From positions 64,001 through 128,000 of the IMG/VR virus record IMGVR_UViG_3300028591_000005: a DNA stretch of 64,000 nucleotides; one strand, 5' to 3'. This stretch comes from a virus (lineage: Duplodnaviria; Caudoviricetes). Positions 17,777-61,094 of this stretch are shown here, in pieces. Position 1 is the first letter of the stretch; each line of letters opens with the position of its first letter. Below the pieces are notes generated by a model, which did no database searches, was not told the origin of the DNA, and was given only the letters and a program-made list of their open reading frames with translations. Made by a program: the position numbers and the translations under genes.

Positions 17777-18073
17777 AATAATTTTTCTCCTTTTTAAATA
17801 AAAAATTAATTAATTAAATAAATTCTATAAGTGATAGGTTTTATCACTTTTCATAAATAATTATACCAAAAATTTTGTATGTTGTCAAGTCATTTTCAAT
17901 TTTTGATATAAAATTTTTTCAAAGAATATTTTCTATCTCTTATAAAAATATTATACTAAAAATTTTTACAAAAGTCAAGTTTTTTGAAAAATTTTTAATT
18001 ATGAAAAATGAGGGAACTATCATATTATATGATTAAACCTCATTATCATTTTACTTCTTTTGCCCAAAGGCAA

Positions 18074-18182
18074 CAATACGGGTAAGGATTTGCACCTTAC
18101 ATGATTGGCTTTTATGTACATTTGCCCGAACCAACCTAATCGTTCCTCGGCTAACAGCGTCTACCTATTCCACCACCGCATT
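18074..18182 (-). ncRNA. tRNA-like RNA without a canonical anticodon arm
   Basis: AATGCGG/CCGTATT closing stem, Leu-type D region GTGGAATAGGTAGAC, and T-arm GTAAGG-TGCAAAT-CCTTAC; about 55 nt replace the anticodon/variable region. Confidence 0.6.
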
Positions 18183-32905: not shown

Positions 32906-34168
32906 TTATAATTTTTGTGCTAACTTTGCAATCTCCGATCTATAAATATTTTCAAGTCTTACTTCTCCATAGAAAGGAGCGCCTTTAAATATTTCACTAA
33001 CTCGTTTCATACCATTATGAGAACCAGCATATAAAGCCATATCAACTTGTGCATCATCATCACCATCAATGATACATATACTGTCTTCTCCAATACGTTG
33101 AAGAGCTAATCTCATAAGTTCAACATCAAGATTTTGAGCTTCTGAGATATAAATTGCGGCATTCATTCCAGTAGTATCATAACCACGGATATCGCTCATT
33201 GGAAGAAGAATTAACTTTCCATCAGCAATTAATCTTTCTACTTCAACTCTATCACCAAGTTTACTTTCAAGAAGATTTCCAATTTGAGAATCAAGAAGTT
33301 TCTCGGTGCGGGAGCCAGGATAGAAACCTAATTTAGCTGAACCTCTGGTAGCAACAGTATTACAGAAAATAATTATTTTGTCAATTTCACCATGTTCTAG
33401 AAGTGAGAACATATGGCCGAAAGCCAAGTAACTTTTACCGGTTCCCGCATGACCTTTAAGCATAGTAATCTGATTACTATTTAAACTATCTAAAGCAAGT
33501 TGCTGATAAGGATCGCCATTCTTTGGTACTATTTTACCAAACATTTTTGATTCAGCCTTTTGGAAAGTTATAGGTTGATATACTCCATTTTTCCATTTAT
33601 ATTTATCTACTACTTTACCATCAGGAGTTTTTATAATAATATATTGATTTTCTAATAATTCAAATTTATTTTCATTATCAGCATAAGAAATATAAAAATC
33701 CGCTAAATCTTCTTCAGATAAAATTAATTCTTTAACTCCAGTGTACTCTTCTTTTGTTGAGGCCTGCGATGGACTAGTTTGAAGACCTAATGTTTTAGCA
33801 ATTAGCCTACAAACAATATCATCACTAACAAAAAGAATTTCCATATTTAATGTTTTTTGGCAATTAAAAGCAGATAGTATGATTCTTGAATCATTATTTT
33901 TAATTAAATTATATTTATTTAAATCTTCTTCAATTTCATTATTATAAAGATAAATTTTAAATTTATCTTTATTTTCTTCAGCATTTAATAATTGACTAAG
34001 TTTTCTTGCCTTTACTTTAATTTCTTCATCTTTTGTATATGAATTTTTAATTTCTTCAAGTTCATTAATTGATATACTTGAAATAACAAATTCATTTTCA
34101 AAAATAGCCTGTTGCAATTCCAACAGGCTACAGGTATCATAAAACTTTATCATATAAAAGTTATCCAC
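32906..34168 (-). CDS. phoH: PhoH family protein with N-terminal PIN domain
   Basis: YDTCSLL, EELE-like, NDSRI and VSDD PIN motifs; GHAGTGKS, LGFYPG, IRG, EAQN and DGD..Q.D. Confidence 0.88.
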   Translation of the reverse strand: MDNFYMIKFYDTCSLLELQQAIFENEFVISSISINELEEIKNSYTKDEEIKVKARKLSQLLNAEENKDKFKIYLYNNEIEEDLNKYNLIKNNDSRIILSAFNCQKTLNMEILFVSDDIVCRLIAKTLGLQTSPSQASTKEEYTGVKELILSEEDLADFYISYADNENKFELLENQYIIIKTPDGKVVDKYKWKNGVYQPITFQKAESKMFGKIVPKNGDPYQQLALDSLNSNQITMLKGHAGTGKSYLAFGHMFSLLEHGEIDKIIIFCNTVATRGSAKLGFYPGSRTEKLLDSQIGNLLESKLGDRVEVERLIADGKLILLPMSDIRGYDTTGMNAAIYISEAQNLDVELMRLALQRIGEDSICIIDGDDDAQVDMALYAGSHNGMKRVSEIFKGAPFYGEVRLENIYRSEIAKLAQKL

Positions 34169-34646: not shown

Positions 34647-35534
34647 CTATATATCTTCTATTTTAGAAAAAATATATTCTTCATTTATCTGTTCTTTTTC
34701 TAAATAAGAAAATCTTATTAAATGAATATTATTATTTTTACAATATTCATTTTTTATTTTATCTTTATTTTGACGATTTTTTAAACCTATTTCTCCTCCC
34801 CAATAAGGTATCTCTTTAAAATGTTGTTCTCCATCATATTCAATGCAAATATTATAATCAGGAAGATAAAAATCAAATCGTAAATTTTTATTATCTTTAC
34901 AATCATTAAATATTTTTTCTTTAATATAAGAAATATTTAAATTTTGTAAAATTTTTTCAATTTTACTATTCATAATTGAATTTAAACATCCACATGATTG
35001 AACTCTATTATGAGTTAAAGCATAACTAGAAACAATTTTTGTTCCTCCACATTCACATTCACACAACCATAAAGTTCCTTCATGATTAGATTCGTTTAAT
35101 TGTTTCAATACAGTTAATTTTCCAAATTTTTGATTTACTAAATTTTGTTTTGGTATAAATCTACTTTCTCTTTGTAAACATCCACAAGATTTAGTATGTC
35201 CAGTTCTTAAATCATGAGATGATTTATAACAAATATTACCACAATCACACAAACATTTCCAAATAATTGAAGAACCAGATCTTTTTAATGTGGGTTCTAA
35301 AACAATAAGTCGTTCAAAACGTTGATTAGTTAAATCTATCATATTATTTTGTCTTCTACTACAAGATAAACATTTAGTAATTGTTCCATTTCTTAGTTCT
35401 TTTCCTTGAACAATTCTAAAATTACCACATGTACATTGACATTTCCACATGGCATGACCATCTTTTGAATTTTCTACTCTTTCTAATACTGTTAAAGAAC
35501 CAAAAGTTTGACCTGTTATATCTATAACTTTCAT
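34647..35534 (-). CDS. Putative homing endonuclease (Cys-rich repeats + Vsr/EDxHD-like domain)
   Basis: Three WxCxCxCG..SCG repeats and FDFY..IEYDGEQH; same family as 24080 and 63410. Confidence 0.75.
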   Translation of the reverse strand: MKVIDITGQTFGSLTVLERVENSKDGHAMWKCQCTCGNFRIVQGKELRNGTITKCLSCSRRQNNMIDLTNQRFERLIVLEPTLKRSGSSIIWKCLCDCGNICYKSSHDLRTGHTKSCGCLQRESRFIPKQNLVNQKFGKLTVLKQLNESNHEGTLWLCECECGGTKIVSSYALTHNRVQSCGCLNSIMNSKIEKILQNLNISYIKEKIFNDCKDNKNLRFDFYLPDYNICIEYDGEQHFKEIPYWGGEIGLKNRQNKDKIKNEYCKNNNIHLIRFSYLEKEQINEEYIFSKIEDI

Positions 35535-35600
35535 ATTAAATCTCCTTTAAAATATATTTTTCTATTAAATATTAATTTTAGAAGAGATAAATTAATGATG

Positions 35601-36161
35601 CTAAACCGGTTGACTATTATAATATTTTTTAATTTCATTAATAATATCATCTATTAACCAAAGATGCATATTATTTGTATCTAATTCGACATGAAATATT
35701 ATTCCTTTATCCATATCACAAAATTTATTTTTATCATGTCGATGTCCACATAAATTAATTATTTTTGCTTTTAGAGGTTTATCGTCATCATAATTACTTG
35801 TTAAACAAGGATAATGAGATAAATAAAAATGATATTGATTATATTGAAAAAATTGACCTTCAGTTATTTCAACTATATTATAACAAGTATTATATAAATT
35901 CATACGGACGTCGCTATCATGATTTCCTCTAACTACATGAATATTTCCTTTAAGCTGTTTAATAAGACGAATACCTTCTTCATTATTGTTAAGCATTAAA
36001 TCTCCAAGACAATAAACATGGTCATCAGGTTCAACAACAGAATTCCAATTATAGAGAATTGCATTATTCATTTCATAAACAGAATTAAATCCACGAGGTT
36101 CATATATAAATGGTTTATTATGGAATAAATGGAGGTCGCTCGTAATCCATATATCAGACAT
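35601..36161 (-). CDS. Metallophosphoesterase
   Basis: SDLHLFH, LGDL, GNHD, SHYP and GHRH motifs. Confidence 0.88.
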   Translation of the reverse strand: MSDIWITSDLHLFHNKPFIYEPRGFNSVYEMNNAILYNWNSVVEPDDHVYCLGDLMLNNNEEGIRLIKQLKGNIHVVRGNHDSDVRMNLYNTCYNIVEITEGQFFQYNQYHFYLSHYPCLTSNYDDDKPLKAKIINLCGHRHDKNKFCDMDKGIIFHVELDTNNMHLWLIDDIINEIKKYYNSQPV

Positions 36162-36678
36162 TATTATTCTCCTTAATTACAATTTCACCATTTGAATATA
36201 TTACAATAATTTTATCAAAACCCTCATCAAAACTGGGATTTCTAAAATGTTCATACATATTTTCAATTACATCACGAGGAACGTATGAACGAGTATTTTT
36301 TCTTTTTTCATTCTGACGAATACAGGTATCTACTCCATTGCGGAGAACAACAGCAATAACTTCACAATCTTTCAAACTATCCCCTAATTTGCGGAGAAGC
36401 TTGGTACGAGATCCTGAATTGATATGCGTAGCATCAGCAATGGTGGCTTCCGCATTTTTTAATCCATCTTTTATTTCATCAATAAATTTATTAAATACTT
36501 CAGTTTCATGCGAGAAGTATTCTTCATCTTCTTTTACTATTGAGAAACGAATATCATCTCTAGATACATATTTCACATCGTCGCCGAACATAGTAAGATG
36601 ATTCTTGCAGAACGTGCTTTTGCCTGTTCCTGGCACTCCACAAATAACGTACAGTTTATTCTTCATAGATATCAACAC
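36154..36678 (-). CDS. AAA_33 polynucleotide-kinase-like P-loop protein
   Basis: CGVPGTGKST, SRDDIR, DATH and RQNEKR..VP. Confidence 0.8.
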   Translation of the reverse strand: MLISMKNKLYVICGVPGTGKSTFCKNHLTMFGDDVKYVSRDDIRFSIVKEDEEYFSHETEVFNKFIDEIKDGLKNAEATIADATHINSGSRTKLLRKLGDSLKDCEVIAVVLRNGVDTCIRQNEKRKNTRSYVPRDVIENMYEHFRNPSFDEGFDKIIVIYSNGEIVIKENNNV

Positions 36679-36955
36679 CTTCTCTCATAAGCTTATCTCT
36701 AAGTTGACCATAGGTCATTTTTCTTTGCTGATTTTCGTCAAAATTTCCATATTTAAATTCAATTTGGAAATCTTCTTTTGTATATTTTGAACCAACTATA
36801 CATTCAGCATGATTAGTTTCCGCATTACATTTAAGACACCAAAGTTTTTTCAAGTGTCCTGCTCCACGTTCTTTACCTGTCTGACGAACAACAGGAATAC
36901 CTTTGCATCCACATTTACAGCAATAAAATTCCTCACCTACAATCAATTTTCCCAT
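36656..36955 (-). CDS. Zn-ribbon hypothetical protein
   Basis: CCKCG..GHLKKLWCLKC. Confidence 0.65.
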   Translation of the reverse strand: MGKLIVGEEFYCCKCGCKGIPVVRQTGKERGAGHLKKLWCLKCNAETNHAECIVGSKYTKEDFQIEFKYGNFDENQQRKMTYGQLRDKLMREGVDIYEE

Positions 36956-37276
36956 TAATAAATATCTCCTAATTTATTATAAATAGTTGCTCTTAAAGAA
37001 TTAATATCATTAGAATTTATTCCAAGTGTTTCAGCAGCTTCATCAAGAATTGTTAATGCAAAAGCGAGTCTCATAACAGGATTAAAACTCATTATTTTAG
37101 TATACATCGCTTCAAAATCATTGAAATATTTTTCTTCAAATTCTTCATAAGTCATAATAATATACTCCTTTTTAAATAAAATCTTTTTTACTATATATAC
37201 ATTATATAATATTTTTTAAAAAAAGTCAAAAAAGAGCGGCGGTCCAGTCCAAAGAGTCTTGAACCGAGGCCGCCGC

Positions 37277-37504
37277 TTACATATATTGCTGTATAAATTC
37301 TTTAAATTTAATAGCATCTTCGGGATATTCAACTGATATTCCTTGAGATACATCAATTGACATATTACCCATTAATGATTTACCATCTACTTTATAAGCT
37401 CCTCTTGATACAATTACATCACCATCTACAAAAGAAGCCTGTTGAGTAAATTTGATAATATCATTAATTCCTTGTAACGTAATAAAACTTTTAATCATTC
37501 CCAT
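37277..37504 (-). CDS. HPr-like protein lacking His15
   Basis: VDGKSLMG (Ser46 signature); no His in the sequence. Confidence 0.75.
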   Translation of the reverse strand: MGMIKSFITLQGINDIIKFTQQASFVDGDVIVSRGAYKVDGKSLMGNMSIDVSQGISVEYPEDAIKFKEFIQQYM

Positions 37505-37529
37505 ATTCTCTTTCCTTTCTTTTGTTTAC

Positions 37530-38216
37530 TTATTCTAACAGCAAACCTCCCCATTGCTCGGCTATAGCTTTAGCAATACCAGGAAAAGTTTTACTTCTTA
37601 ATTTACTTCTTTCTTCTTTTGATAATTTCCATGCATCAGCATACCATGCCGGCATAGTTTTACCTGAAGCAAACTCTTTTCTTGCAGGAGGTTCTACTTG
37701 ATTGGTAGGAGTTAATTTGGGTAAATTCTTCATCCATAAGCAAGTTTTCTTTTCAAAAGGATCACCGAACATATAAGGCTGAATAATCTGATCAGGTTTG
37801 CGGTAATGAGAATTCATATAACCAATAGGATTCTCAATTGCAATTTTATCACAATCCGCATTAACAAAAGCCATAAAGAATTCTGCTGCTTCTTCTCTAT
37901 CTTTAATTCTTTTAAGTGCTTTTTCACCATATTTTTCTACATTAAACCAGCGATTACCAGTTACTGTAAGATAGGTACATGGCGGATGTGCTATAATTAA
38001 ATCCCATTTTCCTTCAATTGAATGTTCAGTACCATCAGCAGTAGTAAAGGTACAGTCACCATTTAATAGCGGCAATACATCAGACTTAATATGCCATTCA
38101 GGATGACCGCCTGAACAATCTATAATATCGCAACTGTATGCTTCCAAACCCAATGCCCGCATTTCAGTTGCTACTGCTTGTGATTCTTCACATGCTATTA
38201 ATACATTTTTACCCAT
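37530..38216 (-). CDS. DNA cytosine methyltransferase-like protein
   Basis: VLIACEESQ, AHPPCTYL (PC motif), IENP and RSKTFPG. Confidence 0.7.
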   Translation of the reverse strand: MGKNVLIACEESQAVATEMRALGLEAYSCDIIDCSGGHPEWHIKSDVLPLLNGDCTFTTADGTEHSIEGKWDLIIAHPPCTYLTVTGNRWFNVEKYGEKALKRIKDREEAAEFFMAFVNADCDKIAIENPIGYMNSHYRKPDQIIQPYMFGDPFEKKTCLWMKNLPKLTPTNQVEPPARKEFASGKTMPAWYADAWKLSKEERSKLRSKTFPGIAKAIAEQWGGLLLE

Positions 38217-38319
38217 ATAATCTCCTTTTGTTTCATATCACTAATAGGGATAGAAAATAATCTATCCCTATTAGAATATTTAAGTTTTATTTTGGAACAT
38301 TTTATATCATTTGACCTTA

Positions 38320-39567
38320 TCATCCATGATACTTGATAAGGAATTCATTAGACACAGCCTTGAAGCTCTGAACTCCGTCTACAGATCTGAATACAAGACC
38401 TTCTCTCATACCACCATCTATAGCAGACTTATCAGTTGCTATCTCAAGAAGCTCTTCAACAGTATCGGGAAGTATGAAATGCTCATCTACTATTGGTACG
38501 CAAGGAACATCATATTGCACCATAAGGTCAGTCATCTCTCTAGGATTCAGTCTCTTTCTTCTACCATCCTTGTATCCAACAATTACATTGAATACAGCGA
38601 GGTCATGCTCCTTAAGAGAATAATCTCTCTTCTGAACACCTTCACCATAAGTCTCGCCCTGAACAGTAACAAAATCAATATTTCCTTCGGTATTCTCGAA
38701 GTACTCCATAAGCATTGAAAGTACATCTTCCATATGATATTTTTCTGCCATTTCAACATATACATTAGTATCATAATAGCACTGCTTGTCAGGTCTATCA
38801 AATACAACATTTCTTGAGCAAACGAAGAACTGTCTCTTTCTTCCCCAACCTCTCATAGTGAAAGTAGTTGAAGTTCCATCTATCTTTTCAGTTGCAAACC
38901 ACTCGGATTTGTCCTTGAGGATTTGAGGCATATTCTGGACTCTTTCCTCGTCAGTCTTTACAACCCATGAAGGCCAGGTTTTAACATCTTTCTTCTTGCC
39001 AAACAGAAGAAGGAATATCTTTCTTGCCCACTTATGTTTCTTTATAAATCTACCAAACTTTCTTGCTATCCAGGGATGTCTAGTAAATGCAGCATTTATT
39101 CTAGCATCAGGATTGGGCTTACCCTTTCTCTTCTGATCTTCAGGCTCATAATAAGTTACACTAAGTTGCTGAGTAAGGAAAGCAGATTCAGTTCCAGGGC
39201 GATATTGATGACCTTCCTTATCATATATGTAATTAAACTCATCAGTATAAGCAACAAACCAACCAAAATCTGCGGCAGGCATAAGAAGCCCCTGAGACCA
39301 GAACTGTCCGTCAGGAGTCTTAAACTTCTGAGTCTTGATATGTCCCTTATATTTCTTACAAAATTCAAATATAGGGTTATCAAGCGGAACCTGGCTATCT
39401 ATTTCAAAATATATTCCAGGGTCGCCTGCCTTAAATGCGCCCTTTGGAACCATACAAGTCCATCCACCAACCCTTGCACATTCAACTCTATCCTTACCTG
39501 CTATAGGCTCTACTGAATCAACAGTAACGACATAAGCAAGTTCTCTTATTCCATCCTTATTAAGCAT
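38320..39567 (-). CDS. ATP-dependent RNA ligase (DRB0094/Rnl family) with N-terminal OB-fold
   Basis: EKIDGTS (motif I), CSRN, QGETYG, REGLV and SFKAVS; N-terminus RELAYVV..IAGKDRVE..V.GW..V.KG.F..G...YFEIDS. Confidence 0.85.
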   Translation of the reverse strand: MLNKDGIRELAYVVTVDSVEPIAGKDRVECARVGGWTCMVPKGAFKAGDPGIYFEIDSQVPLDNPIFEFCKKYKGHIKTQKFKTPDGQFWSQGLLMPAADFGWFVAYTDEFNYIYDKEGHQYRPGTESAFLTQQLSVTYYEPEDQKRKGKPNPDARINAAFTRHPWIARKFGRFIKKHKWARKIFLLLFGKKKDVKTWPSWVVKTDEERVQNMPQILKDKSEWFATEKIDGTSTTFTMRGWGRKRQFFVCSRNVVFDRPDKQCYYDTNVYVEMAEKYHMEDVLSMLMEYFENTEGNIDFVTVQGETYGEGVQKRDYSLKEHDLAVFNVIVGYKDGRRKRLNPREMTDLMVQYDVPCVPIVDEHFILPDTVEELLEIATDKSAIDGGMREGLVFRSVDGVQSFKAVSNEFLIKYHG

Positions 39568-45278: not shown

Positions 45279-45450
45279 ACTCTTTTAATTTATCTTTTAT
45301 TTTATTTTCTTCTCTTGTTTTTGAAATTAAGCGATTTGCTTTACACCAATCACAGGTACCATGATTTCTACATGAGCAATCAATAGCTTTACTTCCATAA
45401 TAAGGTTTTCTATGTTCTTTATTATGTTCAATAGCTTTTTCTAATCCCAT
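45247..45450 (-). CDS. Small Cys/His protein
   Basis: True start is probably MGLEKAI at 45450 (GGAGG SD); KEHRKPY..CRNHG.C.WC. Confidence 0.65.
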   Translation of the reverse strand: MGLEKAIEHNKEHRKPYYGSKAIDCSCRNHGTCDWCKANRLISKTREENKIKDKLKEYEEDAETASF

Positions 45451-45466
45451 AGTATACCTCCTTAAA

Positions 45467-45540
45467 AGCAGATTGGAGGATTCGAACCTCCTCATGTCGG
45501 GGTTTCCGCATTTTACCACGTCCGCGCGCAAGACATCCGC
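45467..45540 (-). pseudogene. tRNA-like remnant (T-arm + acceptor-like stem)
   Basis: GGAGG-TTCGAAT-CCTCC T-arm and GCGGAT/ATCTGC stem; no recognisable anticodon arm. Confidence 0.45.
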
Positions 45541-57737: not shown

Positions 57738-57951
57738 ATAAGGAGAAAGGAAGAGTTGTAGATGACTGTCTACCTCTTTCTGTAAGGATTTACGGCTCTT
57801 AACCGACCTAACTTTCCCCGCGGTTTGCTTTATTGTAGTACGTGTAATCAAACCCGTAATGGAAACACGGTTCTTTTTAGGTGGTTGTCTCCACCAAATT
57901 TATTTCTTTCTTAACTTTCTATAAATATTATAACAAATATTTTTTAAAAAA

Positions 57952-58185
57952 TCAAGTAAGATTTTTTACCTGCTTATACATTGTTTCTAATATACTTAAT
58001 GATTTATTAATTTCAATACAGGCTTCTTCATCATCGAAACCTTTTTTCTTTTGCCAATCTGACCATTTTTTAGGTATCTCAAGACCAAAAATAAAATGTC
58101 CTTGAACATCATTTAAAGCAACGATACCTTTATTTAAGGCATTAAGAACATCATCTTTATTATTATCATTGATTTCAATAATCAT
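57952..58185 (-). CDS. Hypothetical protein
   Basis: Own sigma-A promoter and AAGGAG SD. Confidence 0.65.
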   Translation of the reverse strand: MIIEINDNNKDDVLNALNKGIVALNDVQGHFIFGLEIPKKWSDWQKKKGFDDEEACIEINKSLSILETMYKQVKNLT

Positions 58186-58250
58186 TTTATTCTCCTTAAC
58201 TTTTCTATAAATATTATAACAAAAATTTATAAAAAAATCAAAAAAGAATT

Positions 58251-58709
58251 TTAAATCCCGCCTTGTACATTATAATCTTTAGTACATTCAATTGTGTATG
58301 AAATTGCTGTTATAGTCTCTGGATTATCGCAAACAATTTCAAGTAATGTGTCATACTGATCAAAACTTGTATAAGCATTAGCATGAGATTGTCTTGTAAG
58401 TACTACTGTAGCGCCCATGACATTAACATCAAATCCTTCAAATTTTGCACTCCGCACTATATCATTAAACATAATAGTAACAGTAGATGCTGTTGAAATA
58501 TGAACAGCATTAGGATGAGTTGCATGAACTCTAAACTTAGCAATATTCTCATGTGCTATAACTTGTTCTTTTGTTATATTAATAGTCCAACATTCATCCT
58601 GTTTTTCTGTGTGATTATCAATAATATCACCACTTGCAGCATAAATACCTTCTGCTATATCCTCTAATTCAAGAACTAGAGGTTTAATGTATTCTCCCAT
58701 AAAAATCAT
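58251..58709 (-). CDS. Hypothetical protein with YxKP..AEGIYAASG leader-like N-terminus
   Basis: AAGGAGG SD; beta-rich body. Confidence 0.65.
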   Translation of the reverse strand: MIFMGEYIKPLVLELEDIAEGIYAASGDIIDNHTEKQDECWTINITKEQVIAHENIAKFRVHATHPNAVHISTASTVTIMFNDIVRSAKFEGFDVNVMGATVVLTRQSHANAYTSFDQYDTLLEIVCDNPETITAISYTIECTKDYNVQGGI

Positions 58710-58731
58710 ACCTCCTTATAAAAAATAAAAA

Positions 58732-58804
58732 TGCTAATGAATGGACTTGAACCACTGACTTCCACCTTATCAGAGTGGCGTTCTTCCTACTGAACTACAT
58801 TAGC
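58732..58804 (-). tRNA. tRNA-Ile(GAU)
   Basis: Anticodon arm CCACT-CTGATAA-GGTGG. Confidence 0.9.
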
Positions 58805-58903
58805 ATATGCCTGAGCTTTGTCGCCAGGGCATCAGGCACCCCCGAATTACGGTAATAGCTTATCAACCGTACATGTAGGCTTCGCCTAAGCCCTCATGCG
58901 GAG

Positions 58904-58975
58904 TGGAGCTTGGCGGTTATGCTCCGCCTACTCATCCTTGCAAGGGATGTGTGTTCCTGACTATACCAAAGCCCC
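58904..58975 (-). tRNA. tRNA-Ala(UGC), variant T-loop
   Basis: G3:U70, A73, anticodon arm CATCC-CTTGCAA-GGATG; T-loop AGCATAA. Confidence 0.85.
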
Positions 58976-59254
58976 ATATTGGTTTTTATCCACATATGCC
59001 TGGAACCATAACCAAACATATATGAGGTTAAAGACTTTACCAAGCTTTATTCACTCTCATTCGTATATTTTAGCGACGTCTTTAATTCAGGTTCTCGTCC
59101 ATAGCAGTGAGGAGCTATAATACTCAACAATCTCTGCCTTACGCCCTTCTTCGTCATAGGGTGACCTATGGGATTCTCGTTCTCATAGCAACGCCTGCTC
59201 CAAAGAGCAGGAAAACGACTACTGCGGGGATCGAACCCGCGACCTCGGCAGTGA

Positions 59255-60102
59255 ATGCTCGAAACAAGTTACGACCTTATATTTTAGACCATTCTTCTTC
59301 AGAATATTTATTAATTTCTGTTTTTTTACGAGGTAATCCGAATTTATCACACCATTTTCGGATAGCATTATCAGAAACTCCATATTTAGTTCCAATTGTT
59401 GTAAATGGAACAGTTCTGATAAGATTTTTTAATTCTTCTCTTGTAATAGGCATTTTATCTTCAGGAATAATTCTATTTTTAGCAGAACATTCTGCACATC
59501 TTGTTGATGTTCTAAAAATTTCTTTTCCACAATCTATACAATAAAATTTTTTTGCAAAAATTTTTCTTTGTGGATTCCTACTACCTGTTGTTTCTAATTG
59601 TTGATTACAATTAGGACATACCCATCTTAAATTTTCTAATCTGTCATCATTATTAATACCATTGATATGGTCAAGTATAAGAGTCAATTCTTTACCTTGC
59701 CATATTGGCTCTTGTCCACAGATAGAACATTTATATTCAGAGCAAGAATTTTTTATATATAATTTTCGTAAAGTATGTTGACTTGCTGTAGAATCTTGTA
59801 TAAAAGTATTCTCCGGAGTCCTAATTACTCCTGTTCTAATACTCTTTTGAAAATGAGAAGTATCATAATTACTTAATTTTTCTTCTAACATTTTAAGAGT
59901 ATCTCCAGATGGAGAATTACTATATCCAATTTTTCTAGCAAAATCTTTAAAAGAAACAGAAATTTTTACAATATTTTCTATTTCTGAAGATGAATAATTT
60001 TCAAAATATCCCATAAAGACTCCTTTCTTATAAGATATATGAAAATAAGTTCAACTTCTTGAACTCGACTCGTCCAAAGTTTTACATTTAAACTATTCGA
60101 AC
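59255..60102 (-). mobile_element. tRNA-shaped intron carrying an HNH endonuclease gene
   Basis: GTTCGAA/TTCGAGC stem, D-arm TA-GTTT-AAATGTA-AAAC, TTTGGAC/GTCTAAA stem enclosing the ORF, T-arm ATAAG-GTCGTAA-CTTGT. Confidence 0.8.
59277..60014 (-). CDS. HNH homing endonuclease (intron-encoded)
   Basis: CSICG..LILDHINGINNDDRLENLRWVCPNC, second zinc finger CIDC..CAEC, C-terminal HTH (YGVSDNAIRKW). Confidence 0.9.
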   Translation of the reverse strand: MGYFENYSSSEIENIVKISVSFKDFARKIGYSNSPSGDTLKMLEEKLSNYDTSHFQKSIRTGVIRTPENTFIQDSTASQHTLRKLYIKNSCSEYKCSICGQEPIWQGKELTLILDHINGINNDDRLENLRWVCPNCNQQLETTGSRNPQRKIFAKKFYCIDCGKEIFRTSTRCAECSAKNRIIPEDKMPITREELKNLIRTVPFTTIGTKYGVSDNAIRKWCDKFGLPRKKTEINKYSEEEWSKI

Positions 60103-60247
60103 CAGTGCCGTATTCTAACCAAACTGAACTAAGTAGCCAAAACAATAGCAATACCGAGTAAGATGTCAAATCTCCTTTTTATAGTGATTGGATCCACTTG
60201 TGTTCTTACTATATCGGCTTTATTCTCTTCTAAATTGCTATTGTAAA

Positions 60248-60319
60248 ATGGAATGACAGGACTCGAACCTATGCATAGCGATTTTTCCATCGCCGCTCTA
60301 CCAACTGAGCTACATTCCG
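60248..60319 (-). ncRNA. tRNA-like gene with aberrant 6-nt anticodon loop (GGAAAA) and C1:A72
   Basis: Canonical D-arm AGCTCAGTTGGTAGAGC and T-arm; anticodon arm GCGAT-GGAAAA-ATCGC. Confidence 0.65.
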
Positions 60320-60810
60320 TAATCGGTTTAACGCTCTGTACGATTCCCCTATTTAACTTCGGGACAGCTCCACATCTGTTATTTAAACTCTCTAGTGGGG
60401 AGAGTATAGTTCATGAACCGGTTGAACTTGGGTCGCACGAGGTGTCAACCAAACCCCGCCGTTTGCAAACTAGTGATTATTTTTTTAGTTCATCACCACC
60501 GAACACTTCTCACATAGCGAAGTAAATGGATAAGGATTTCATCGCCTTATACAGATATTGGTATGTTCTTTCTCGTAAAACTCCAACATCAAAACCGACC
60601 TGTTTTTTTTAAAATCTTATTGGATAACAGGTAACCTCACCGATACAGTCGTCGCTCACGAGACCTCGTTATACATAGCATCGGAGCAAGGGTTCTCACC
60701 TGCATTTTCTGCCAAGACAGAGGTTTGTATCTTAACCTATCCGGTGCCTAACGAGCGCGGAGCCTCATCTCCGCCTGTCATATCCTGTCAATTCAGGCAT
60801 TACTTCGGTT
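60320..60810 (-). ncRNA. Candidate large structured ncRNA with an embedded tRNA-like domain (60677-60748)
   Basis: About 490 nt, GC-enriched, no minus-strand ORF of 60 aa or more, many stems; flanked by tRNA genes. Confidence 0.5.
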
Positions 60811-60814
60811 GAAA

Positions 60815-60945
60815 CGGGAATCCGAGGACTCGAACCTCGATACTACGCTTAATGGATAAATGAGTACTGCCCTCAAATCCTTGACAGTGTTTTCTTTAAA
60901 CTATTATCCCACAGGCGTATGTCCTAACCTTTGGACGAGAAACCC
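60815..60945 (-). tRNA. tRNA-Asn(GUU) split by a 59-nt tRNA-shaped intron (60852-60910)
   Basis: TACGC-CTGT[insert]TAA-GCGTA; G73; the acceptor stem has two U:U mismatches. Confidence 0.8.
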
Positions 60946-61094
60946 AAATCACGGGAGCCCATCCCCGCATTCTCACACAGAGCATTCTCTGGTCGGGCAT
61001 ATTGAAAGGGAGGTGTGATTTATATACAAAAGAAAGGGAAAACCTTAAAGGATAATGTAGGAACATTTCATATCCCTTTCTTTATTGTAAATAT

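Follow-up and report, generated by a model that had tools for sequence, protein, structure and literature searches.

The window described here is a 64,000-nt stretch, bases 64001–128000, of IMG/VR virus record IMGVR_UViG_3300028591_000005 (Duplodnaviria; Caudoviricetes). Its minus strand encodes a P-loop polynucleotide kinase-like protein, a calcineurin-like metallophosphoesterase and an ATP-dependent RNA ligase (Table 1). Very probably the three together make up a kit with which the phage heals and seals RNA, and its main substrate is most likely tRNA, or another RNA of translation, that host anticodon nucleases have cut. The kinase would phosphorylate 5′-OH RNA ends. The phosphoesterase, translationally coupled to it, would open or remove 2′,3′-cyclic or 3′-phosphates, so that the two together would amount to a split bacterial Pnkp. 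The ligase, of the Rnl5 type, would then use ATP, through a lysyl-AMP at K228, to join 3′-OH to 5′-phosphate. The genes are intact and linked, their families and catalytic motifs are recognizable, and parts of the set are replaced in relatives; the enzymatic activities of the three proteins and their tRNA target we infer from sequence. The same genome carries tRNA genes interrupted in the anticodon loop, which may be further substrates of the ligase.

The phage record, numbered G000 among its relatives, is a single contig of 145,977 bp with 32.8% GC and a 127-bp terminal overlap, and its completeness is rated 100%. A megablast of the locus against cultured phages gave no match; at the DNA level the phage has no close cultured relative. 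Twelve related viral records were fetched complete and one in part, G002 being the closest relative, and the ligase families were searched in 28 related records.

Table 1. The repair locus, the interrupted tRNA genes and their neighbours, in window coordinates
Feature	Position	Strand	Evidence or remark
PIN + PhoH protein (PhoH2-like RNA helicase/nuclease)	32906–34168	−	PF13638 + PF02562; NF053827, E 2e-32
Free-standing HNH homing endonuclease, between phosphoesterase and PhoH	34647–35534	−	phrog_374/559
Calcineurin-like metallophosphoesterase, 186 aa	35601–36161	−	PF12850/PF00149; phrog_547, E 2e-39
P-loop polynucleotide 5′-kinase-like protein, 174 aa	36154–36678	−	PF13671/KTI12; phrog_505; TIGR04075
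Small Cys-rich (CxxC...CxxC) protein, 99 aa	36656–36955	−	phrog_1257 zinc-finger match, E 1e-7
228-aa protein, between ligase and kinase	37530–38216	−	PHROGs label 'DNA methyltransferase' (phrog_757)
Rnl5-type ATP-dependent RNA ligase, 415 aa	38320–39567	−	PF21189 + PF09414; phrog_968; NgrRnl match
DUF2828 + DUF7788 + VWA protein (Ro60/TROVE-like)	54481–55947	−	Pfam
tRNA-Pro(GGG)-like gene, 46-nt hairpin+ACAGCAA arm in anticodon stem (28/29)	56133–56249	−	ARAGORN, Rfam
tRNA-Leu(UAA), split by 45-nt hairpin strictly between 36 and 37	56545–56673	−	Candidate ligase substrate
tRNA-Asp(GUC), split 34/35 by 848-nt insert with HNH open reading frame (59277–60014)	59215–60139	−	Candidate ligase substrate
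tRNA-Asn(GUU), split 34/35 or 35/36 by 59-nt tRNA-like insert without open reading frame	60815–60945	−	Candidate ligase substrate

The putative healing and sealing enzymes

The ligase begins with an OB fold (PF21189, PHA02142 OB-fold, E 1e-15, residues 10–97), followed by the RNA_ligase domain PF09414. NgrRnl matches it by sequence across both domains (E 3e-35, about 29% identity), ligase residues 6–101 aligning with NgrRnl 3–102. NgrRnl is also the top fold match, over the full length (E 4e-24) and with T4 Rnl2 behind, for an AlphaFold model of mean pLDDT 76.5. The stretches KIDGTS, QGETYGE, REGLVFR and FKAVS line up with NgrRnl motifs, the motif I lysine and motifs III, IIIa, IV and V being present, and K228 of motif I, E389 and G390 of motif IV and R394 are unchanged in eight homologues. 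As in DraRnl and NgrRnl, an OB module precedes the adenylyltransferase domain and the protein ends soon after motif V, with no appended C-terminal domain; motif IV occupies residues 388–394 of 415. The phage protein differs from these two enzymes in its limited identity and in a basic, ~70-residue linker between the domains, at about residues 105–195, absent from NgrRnl and modelled as three helices. It also falls short of the TIGR02306 equivalog cut-off (104 versus 151 bits), probably owing to the linker insertion and to divergence. By its domains and motifs the ligase is a member of the wider Rnl5 (DraRnl/NgrRnl) clade, and the first-pass annotation, which had put it in the 'DRB0094 family' and given it an N-terminal OB fold, was right. 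Phage members of Rnl5, for example that of Aeromonas phage 44RR2.8t, were noted already in PMC1807946.

This is the sole RNA ligase of the genome. PF09414 matches once, and profile searches of the genome gave no match to PF09511 (Rnl1), to RtcB (PF01139) or to the EndA-type splicing endonuclease (PF01974), control genomes being positive for the last two. No RNase III was found in the genome.

The kinase matches phrog_505 (E 6e-20) and TIGR04075 (Pnkp N-terminus, residues 9–161, E 8e-14). Its matches in the PDB include the kinase domain of CthPnkp, from Clostridium thermocellum (4GP7, E 2e-6), Pnkp1 (2e-4) and T4 Pnk (5e-3), with PSTK slightly better. By these scores it belongs to the polynucleotide-kinase/PSTK clade. 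A further match is to phrog_8238, a 737-position phage 'RNA ligase' profile for a family in which kinase and ligase are fused, and falls in the kinase part at its N-terminus. Its motifs are the P-loop GVPGTGKST, SRDDIR and lid arginines, R126 among them, and G14, G19, K20, T22, D41, R44, D82, R91 and R126 are invariant among homologues. SRDDIR would provide the catalytic Asp and the neighbouring Arg that contacts the 5′-OH nucleoside, the counterparts of Asp35 and Arg38 of T4 Pnk.

The phosphoesterase has the motifs DxH, GD, GNHD, H and GHxH unchanged in eight homologues, its invariant residues being D9, H11, G53, D54, G79, N80, H81, D82, H116, G139, H140 and H142. We do not file it in the Pnkp/lambda clade, because the only solved relative found is the uncharacterised Aquifex protein aq_1665 (E 2.5e-7). 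A role in end healing is proposed because the gene is linked to the kinase and because an HD domain replaces it in one relative (see below). The gene starts inside the end of the kinase gene, with 8 nt in common. All three open reading frames (ORFs) of the kit have the limits that the first-pass annotation gave, and family and motifs of these two bear out its description of a metallophosphoesterase coupled to a PNK-like kinase. A predicted complex of the two proteins scored 0.00, which we count neither for nor against.

The kit in related phages

Kinase and phosphoesterase genes occur together in nine genomes and are direct neighbours in seven of these; a single ORF separates them in G008, and 19 kb in G003. 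The phosphoesterase is missing from G024, where the kinase is instead fused to an HD phosphohydrolase domain, so that a different phosphoesterase fills the same place. Every relative has an RNA ligase gene no more than about 7 kb from the healing genes, and the type of ligase varies. Canonical Rnl5 is found in G000–G003 and G020, a divergent OB-plus-ligase protein of 442–460 aa in G004, G009 and G023, and Rnl1 in G008. G024 has an intein-bearing ligase and an Rnl1-like protein. Among cultured phages, phiM12 has the same ligase family as the present phage (gp279), 2 kb from a metallophosphoesterase gene (gp283).

The variation in ligase type beside the healing genes suggests selection for a sealing activity and not for one gene. 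The swapping of each part for an analogous enzyme is the strongest evidence here that the parts would serve one heal-and-seal pathway.

The G024 ligase gene (72844–74706; L039:349-2211) is split by an HNH intein, with PF14890 and PF01844 inside PF09414, and the Rnl1-like gene lies 1.6 kb upstream of it.

Comparison with known repair systems

The set is of a known kind, that of phage RNA repair kits, which are predicted in silico and have been tested experimentally only in T4. T4 answers the nuclease PrrC with Pnkp and Rnl1, of which the present kit would be the functional counterpart: a 5′-kinase, a 3′-end phosphoesterase and an ATP-dependent ligase in a tRNA-rich lytic phage. In G008 an Rnl1-type ligase accompanies the same phosphoesterase and kinase. 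The present phage differs from T4 in having separate proteins, a binuclear metallophosphoesterase in place of a DxDxT (HAD) enzyme, and Rnl5 in place of Rnl1.

The Pnkp-Hen1 system of C. thermocellum offers a second parallel, in its kinase domain (4GP7, TIGR04075) and in its pairing of a kinase with a calcineurin-type phosphoesterase. Here, however, the genes are split, no Hen1 methyltransferase was found, and the phosphoesterase clade and ligase family are different. The kinase-HD fusion of G024 resembles HD-Pnk of Runella slithyformis.

A survey of jumbo phages (Iyer et al. 2021, PMC7824862) reports that phage ATP-dependent RNA ligases co-occur with polynucleotide kinases, with phosphoesterases (calcineurin-like in a few) and with tRNA arrays. 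It lists TROVE proteins with tRNA-like partners among the RNA-repair components, and interprets the kits as phage counter-measures to tRNA cleavage. All the kit components named in the part of that survey available to us are present here; in that part the kits are read purely as repair, with no link to interrupted tRNAs.

Interrupted tRNA genes

Interrupted tRNA genes were read from ARAGORN with introns allowed, from Rfam and by direct reading, which gave four in the window. Three of them, Asp, Asn and Leu(UAA), had been correctly listed in the first-pass annotation, together with the statement that they occur only as interrupted genes. This holds across the whole 146-kb genome, where no uninterrupted copy was found. 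The fourth, tRNA-Pro(GGG), had been missed. The Asp insert is not a short one: its 848 nt include an ORF for an HNH endonuclease. The three tRNAs Asp, Asn and Leu(UAA) would between them decode ~17% of the codons used by the phage, Asn accounting for 6.8% and Asp for 6.7%, with UUA making up 47% of Leu.

The exons are intact in all cases, and where they differ from uninterrupted orthologues, compensatory changes preserve the helices. The tRNA-Asp of G002 is uninterrupted; in G001 the same site holds an orthologous Asp insert, whose 7-bp closing stem shows compensatory change. The tRNA-Asn genes of G001 and G002 are both uninterrupted, and similar Asn inserts occur in G004, G020 and phiM12. The Leu insert can be placed strictly at 36/37 because the uninterrupted G002 orthologue fixes the mature loop as CTTAAAA.

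The Pro(GGG) insert is more likely a retained protein-docking arm than an intron, and so probably is no ligase substrate. Two free ACAGCAA modules, at ~56119 and ~56041, stand directly upstream of the Ro-like gene. Near Ro-like genes of other phages, 72 of 98 distinct inserts have a strict CAGCA[AT], and most others are near-variants by inspection. That Ro-anchored sample comprises 80 phage loci, mostly fragmentary contigs and ACAGCAA-arm inserts, and is uninformative on the ligase question.

Nature of the inserts

The group I intron model RF00028 gave no match at E <= 0.1 over positions 53500–61000 of the window, nor in the insert regions of G008, G020 and G024. As a positive control, the group I intron in tRNA-Leu(UAA) of G023 was detected (45 bits, E 1e-10). 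Nor do the inserts offer room for a ribozyme core, being 45–59 nt long or nearly all ORF, that of G008 being of the latter kind.

The ORF-bearing inserts of G000–G004 are built alike. A 7-nt strand starts exactly where the exon ends and is followed by TA or TTA and then by a hairpin, GTTT-loop-AAAC, in imitation of the D arm of a tRNA. After the ORF come a small hairpin resembling a T arm, the 7 nt that pair with the first strand, and 1–4 further nt. Their five closing stems differ in sequence and all pair, for example GTTCGAA/TTCGAGC in G000 and GTTTGAA/TTCAAGC in G001. The ORF-less Asn inserts (G000, G004, G020, phiM12) are miniature versions of these, with canonical T arms in G020 and phiM12, and the acceptor-like stem covaries between the Asn inserts of G004 and G020. 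In the present phage the Asn insert has the same acceptor-plus-D-arm mimic as the Asp insert; the Leu insert is a plain hairpin.

Enzymes that trim tRNA ends, were they to excise such tRNA-shaped inserts, would leave 3′-OH and 5′-phosphate ends that a ligase could join with no healing step. Two other ways of cutting were considered and set aside. Bulge-helix-bulge splicing does not fit, since on inspection none of the folds shows a helix with a 3-nt bulge on either side, and EndA is absent from the genome. RNase III-like cutting, with its 2-nt 3′ overhang, would suit the geometry of the Leu hairpin but not that of the Asn insert, and RNase III is likewise absent.

Archaea and eukaryotes, with EndA/TSEN and RtcB/Trl1, likewise have anticodon-loop inserts that lack a ribozyme and need to be cut and sealed, and Trl1 combines ligase, kinase and phosphoesterase. 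The phage differs in having no EndA, RtcB or bulge-helix-bulge, in insert sites at 34/35 or 36/37 rather than 37/38, and in the trimming enzymes proposed for excision. Among the 'enigmatic' tRNA introns described in Lak megaphages, one is itself tRNA-like (PMC6784885).

Co-occurrence of inserts and RNA ligase

The first-pass annotation had proposed checking whether such inserts co-occur with the ligase family, and had named a common lack of any RNA ligase in intron-bearing phages as a finding that would speak against its reading. No such phage was found: among the records examined, insert implies ligase without exception. All nine metagenomic records with ribozyme-less anticodon-loop inserts (G000–G004, G008, G009, G020 and G024) encode an RNA ligase, and the fragments G018 and G026 have both insert and ligase. 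The unrelated cultured Sinorhizobium phages phiM12, phiM7 and phiM19 have a 46-nt tRNA-like insert in tRNA-Asn, together with an Rnl5 ligase. No intact interrupted tRNA was found in the ligase-less lineages, namely the 45%-GC clade (G013/G016/G017/G028), G012 and Enterococcus phage iF6, some of which were partly scanned. Inserts were detected with ARAGORN, and the insert-bearing records represent perhaps five independent lineages, a small and phylogenetically clustered sample.

Two apparent exceptions dissolved. G008 has an insert and no PF09414 match, and encodes an Rnl1-type ligase. In iF6 (MT909815.1 ~35500–36400; L146:2413-3250) an unannotated HNH gene, of the same family as those in the inserts, has replaced 26 nt of tRNA-Pro; the anticodon arm is gone with them, which makes this the destruction of a gene and not an intron. 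The tRNA-Pro is intact in 28 sister Schiekvirus genomes.

The converse does not hold: G006, G023 and Pseudomonas phage JG004 have a ligase and no ribozyme-less insert, and the ligase family is widespread, with 333 cultured phage records. The Leu(UAA) inserts of G006 and G023 were rejected as ligase-dependent, being group I introns.

In both phages (G023, L131:4544-4735; G006, 78974–79937) a classic group I intron splits tRNA-Leu(UAA) at U34/A35, and one group of phages thus has tRNA inserts of the self-splicing as well as of the ribozyme-less kind. The interrupted tRNA-Asn(GUU) gene of phiM12, 118 nt long, lies at NC_027204.1 94960–95077 (L150:161-278), and the phiM12, phiM7 and phiM19 records call it 'tRNA-OTHER' or 'tRNA-Thr'. 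Hairpin+CAGCAA-like modules stand just upstream of it in phiM12, and the Ochrobactrum phage ORM_20 allele is uninterrupted.

Repair, splicing and their alternatives

Several observations weigh against a kit directed at cleaved tRNA. The physiological role of Rnl5 has been called 'uncharted' (PMC5397189). Its enzymes seal nicked duplexes, including RNA-DNA hybrids, if the 3′-OH strand ends in ribonucleotides, and Deinococcus without DraRnl is sensitive to ionising radiation (PMC5397189, PMC1807946), a phenotype that could instead reflect the mending of DNA nicks that contain RNA. A PDB search detected no homology of the phosphoesterase to the CthPnkp/lambda phosphatase domain. The phosphoesterase family occurs in >1,100 cultured phage records, against the 333 with the ligase family, and iF6 has it together with none of three RNA ligase families. 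A promoter and terminator scan of the locus did not rise above shuffled controls, leaving a single operon unsupported. On the DNA side, the ligase and healing enzymes would act on DNA-linked substrates in phage replication or repair, such as nicks whose 3′ end is a ribonucleotide from an RNA primer or an embedded ribonucleotide, the tRNA features being coincidental; a weak phosphoesterase match to PdeM, a ligase-associated DNA-damage phosphoesterase (E 0.004), also points that way. We regard this as improbable, given that Rnl5 is swapped in G008 and G024 for an Rnl1-type ligase, a single-strand or tRNA-loop enzyme (PMC1807946). The nearest families of the kinase are moreover the tRNA/RNA kinases PSTK, KTI12 and Pnkp, and the conserved neighbours (PIN-PhoH2, the Ro-like protein, the tRNA cluster) are RNA-related.

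The repair of cleaved tRNA is compatible with a further role, in which proteins alone splice the tRNAs and the phage ligase performs the sealing, a serious possibility although not what we would expect to find. RNase P on the 5′ side and RNase Z or a similar enzyme on the 3′ side would excise the inserts, the exons would be held by the tRNA body, the ligase would seal them, and inserts would persist only in phages with an RNA ligase. T4 Pnkp and Rnl1 can stand in for the yeast tRNA splicing ligase. Favouring splicing are the dependence of some 17% of codons on genes present solely in interrupted form, their intact exons with uninterrupted orthologues in G002, and the lack of a group I signal under a test that finds the G023 intron. 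The closing stems maintained by compensatory change in five ORF-bearing inserts and the covarying Asn inserts of G020 and G004 argue the same way. So does the distribution: an RNA ligase of one of four types in all nine records and in the phiM12/M7/M19 lineage, and no intact interrupted tRNA in three ligase-less lineages, in one of which the same HNH family cost a tRNA-Pro 26 nt. Against it, the characterised Rnl5 enzymes are sealers of duplex nicks: DraRnl and NgrRnl seal 3′-OH/5′-phosphate nicks in duplexes having an RNA 3′-OH strand (PMC1807946, PMC4408790), whereas free single-strand ends are not joined by DraRnl and it is ligases of the Rnl1 type that suit anticodon loops (PMC1807946). 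Many phages without inserts have the ligase family, G006 and G023 combining a ligase with self-splicing introns only. Some five lineages, ARAGORN-dependent detection and partly scanned ligase-less records make for weak statistics; the 3′ boundary of the inserts, 1–4 nt past the closing stem, does not uniformly fit RNase Z; and the sealing could fall to an enzyme of the host, RtcB for example. The first-pass choice of this ligase as the 'best candidate' to join the exons was fair in that it is the only RNA ligase of a genome without EndA, RtcB or RNase III; that it does join them is suggested by the comparison with relatives. It is also possible, but rather unlikely, that the interrupted tRNAs are never matured and leave nothing to splice: they would be genes killed by HNH elements, or would serve host nucleases or the Ro-like protein as decoys or docking RNAs. 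The destructive insertion of the HNH family in iF6 is consistent with this, as are the probable retained arm in Pro(GGG), of a kind that dominates near Ro-like genes, the usual dispensability of phage tRNAs, and sub-threshold YrlA matches in the G024 cluster. Dead genes would not be expected to keep intact exons, compensated helices and covarying closing stems, nor to be the only genes for heavily used codons. An insert inside the anticodon would be pointless for a docking arm, yet position 34/35, the site of the Asp, Asn and Glu inserts, is also a cut site of several known anticodon nucleases. That coincidence fits the first-pass idea of inserts exploiting an existing repair pathway.

Should trimming enzymes excise the inserts, the kinase and phosphoesterase would not be needed for splicing, and the kit would be directed primarily against nucleases that leave cyclic-phosphate ends.

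Neighbouring genes and other observations

The end of the 99-aa Cys-rich ORF overlaps the kinase start, and a homologous ORF precedes the kinase in G002. Its product has marginal similarity (E 0.04) to the N-terminal extension of the G001 kinase and is possibly an accessory nucleic-acid-binding subunit. The PIN-PhoH2 gene is 0.8–3.2 kb from the phosphoesterase gene in G002, G003, G004, G009 and G020, and adjoins the kinase gene in G001. In G001 (98438–100955; L057/L058) it matches as two pieces ~1.2 kb apart, which suggests an intein or mobile insertion.

The HNH gene between phosphoesterase and PhoH is a mobile passenger outside the pathway, with several paralogues in the genome. The 228-aa protein was considered as a Hen1-like RNA methylase and rejected: searches of Pfam, NCBIfam and the PDB gave no match, nor was a homologue found among the relatives examined.

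The Ro-like gene is kept beside tRNA clusters in nine relatives and in the cultured phage iF6, and its product is possibly a partner in an RNA-repair platform. The YrlA (Y-RNA-like) matches in the tRNA cluster of G024 are at L105:15491-15607 and L105:14663-14776.

Three further observations concern tRNA-like sequences. A tRNA with an odd anticodon loop at 60247–60320 (−) is given the 4-base anticodon GAAA by ARAGORN (GGAA in G002, 111033–111105); this could be a tRNA of the Phe type whose loop has been remodelled, perhaps in a way that evades nucleases. The 118-nt spacer between two tRNA genes at 56350–56467 (−) has nested inverted repeats and a CTGATGA motif, with no Rfam match at E <= 0.1. 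Two orphan T-arm/acceptor-like elements, at ~45420–45491 (−) and ~18000–18110 (−), are called by neither ARAGORN nor Rfam and may be further tRNA-like or interrupted genes.

Significance

To the known phage repair kits the present analysis adds that, among the records examined, interrupted tRNAs without a ribozyme were found only together with some RNA ligase, and that the family of that ligase is interchangeable. We put forward, as a tentative proposal and one with the chances against it, that phages have a protein-only tRNA splicing, with mobile tRNA-shaped inserts in the anticodon loop (some with a homing-endonuclease gene, some without), host trimming enzymes and a phage ATP-dependent ligase, in which the inserts parasitise the repair kit. 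The cultured phages phiM12, phiM7 and phiM19 provide a genetically tractable system for this idea. If it is true, the bacterial world would have its first known case of tRNA splicing by enzymes, and the Rnl5 ligases their first physiological substrate and function.

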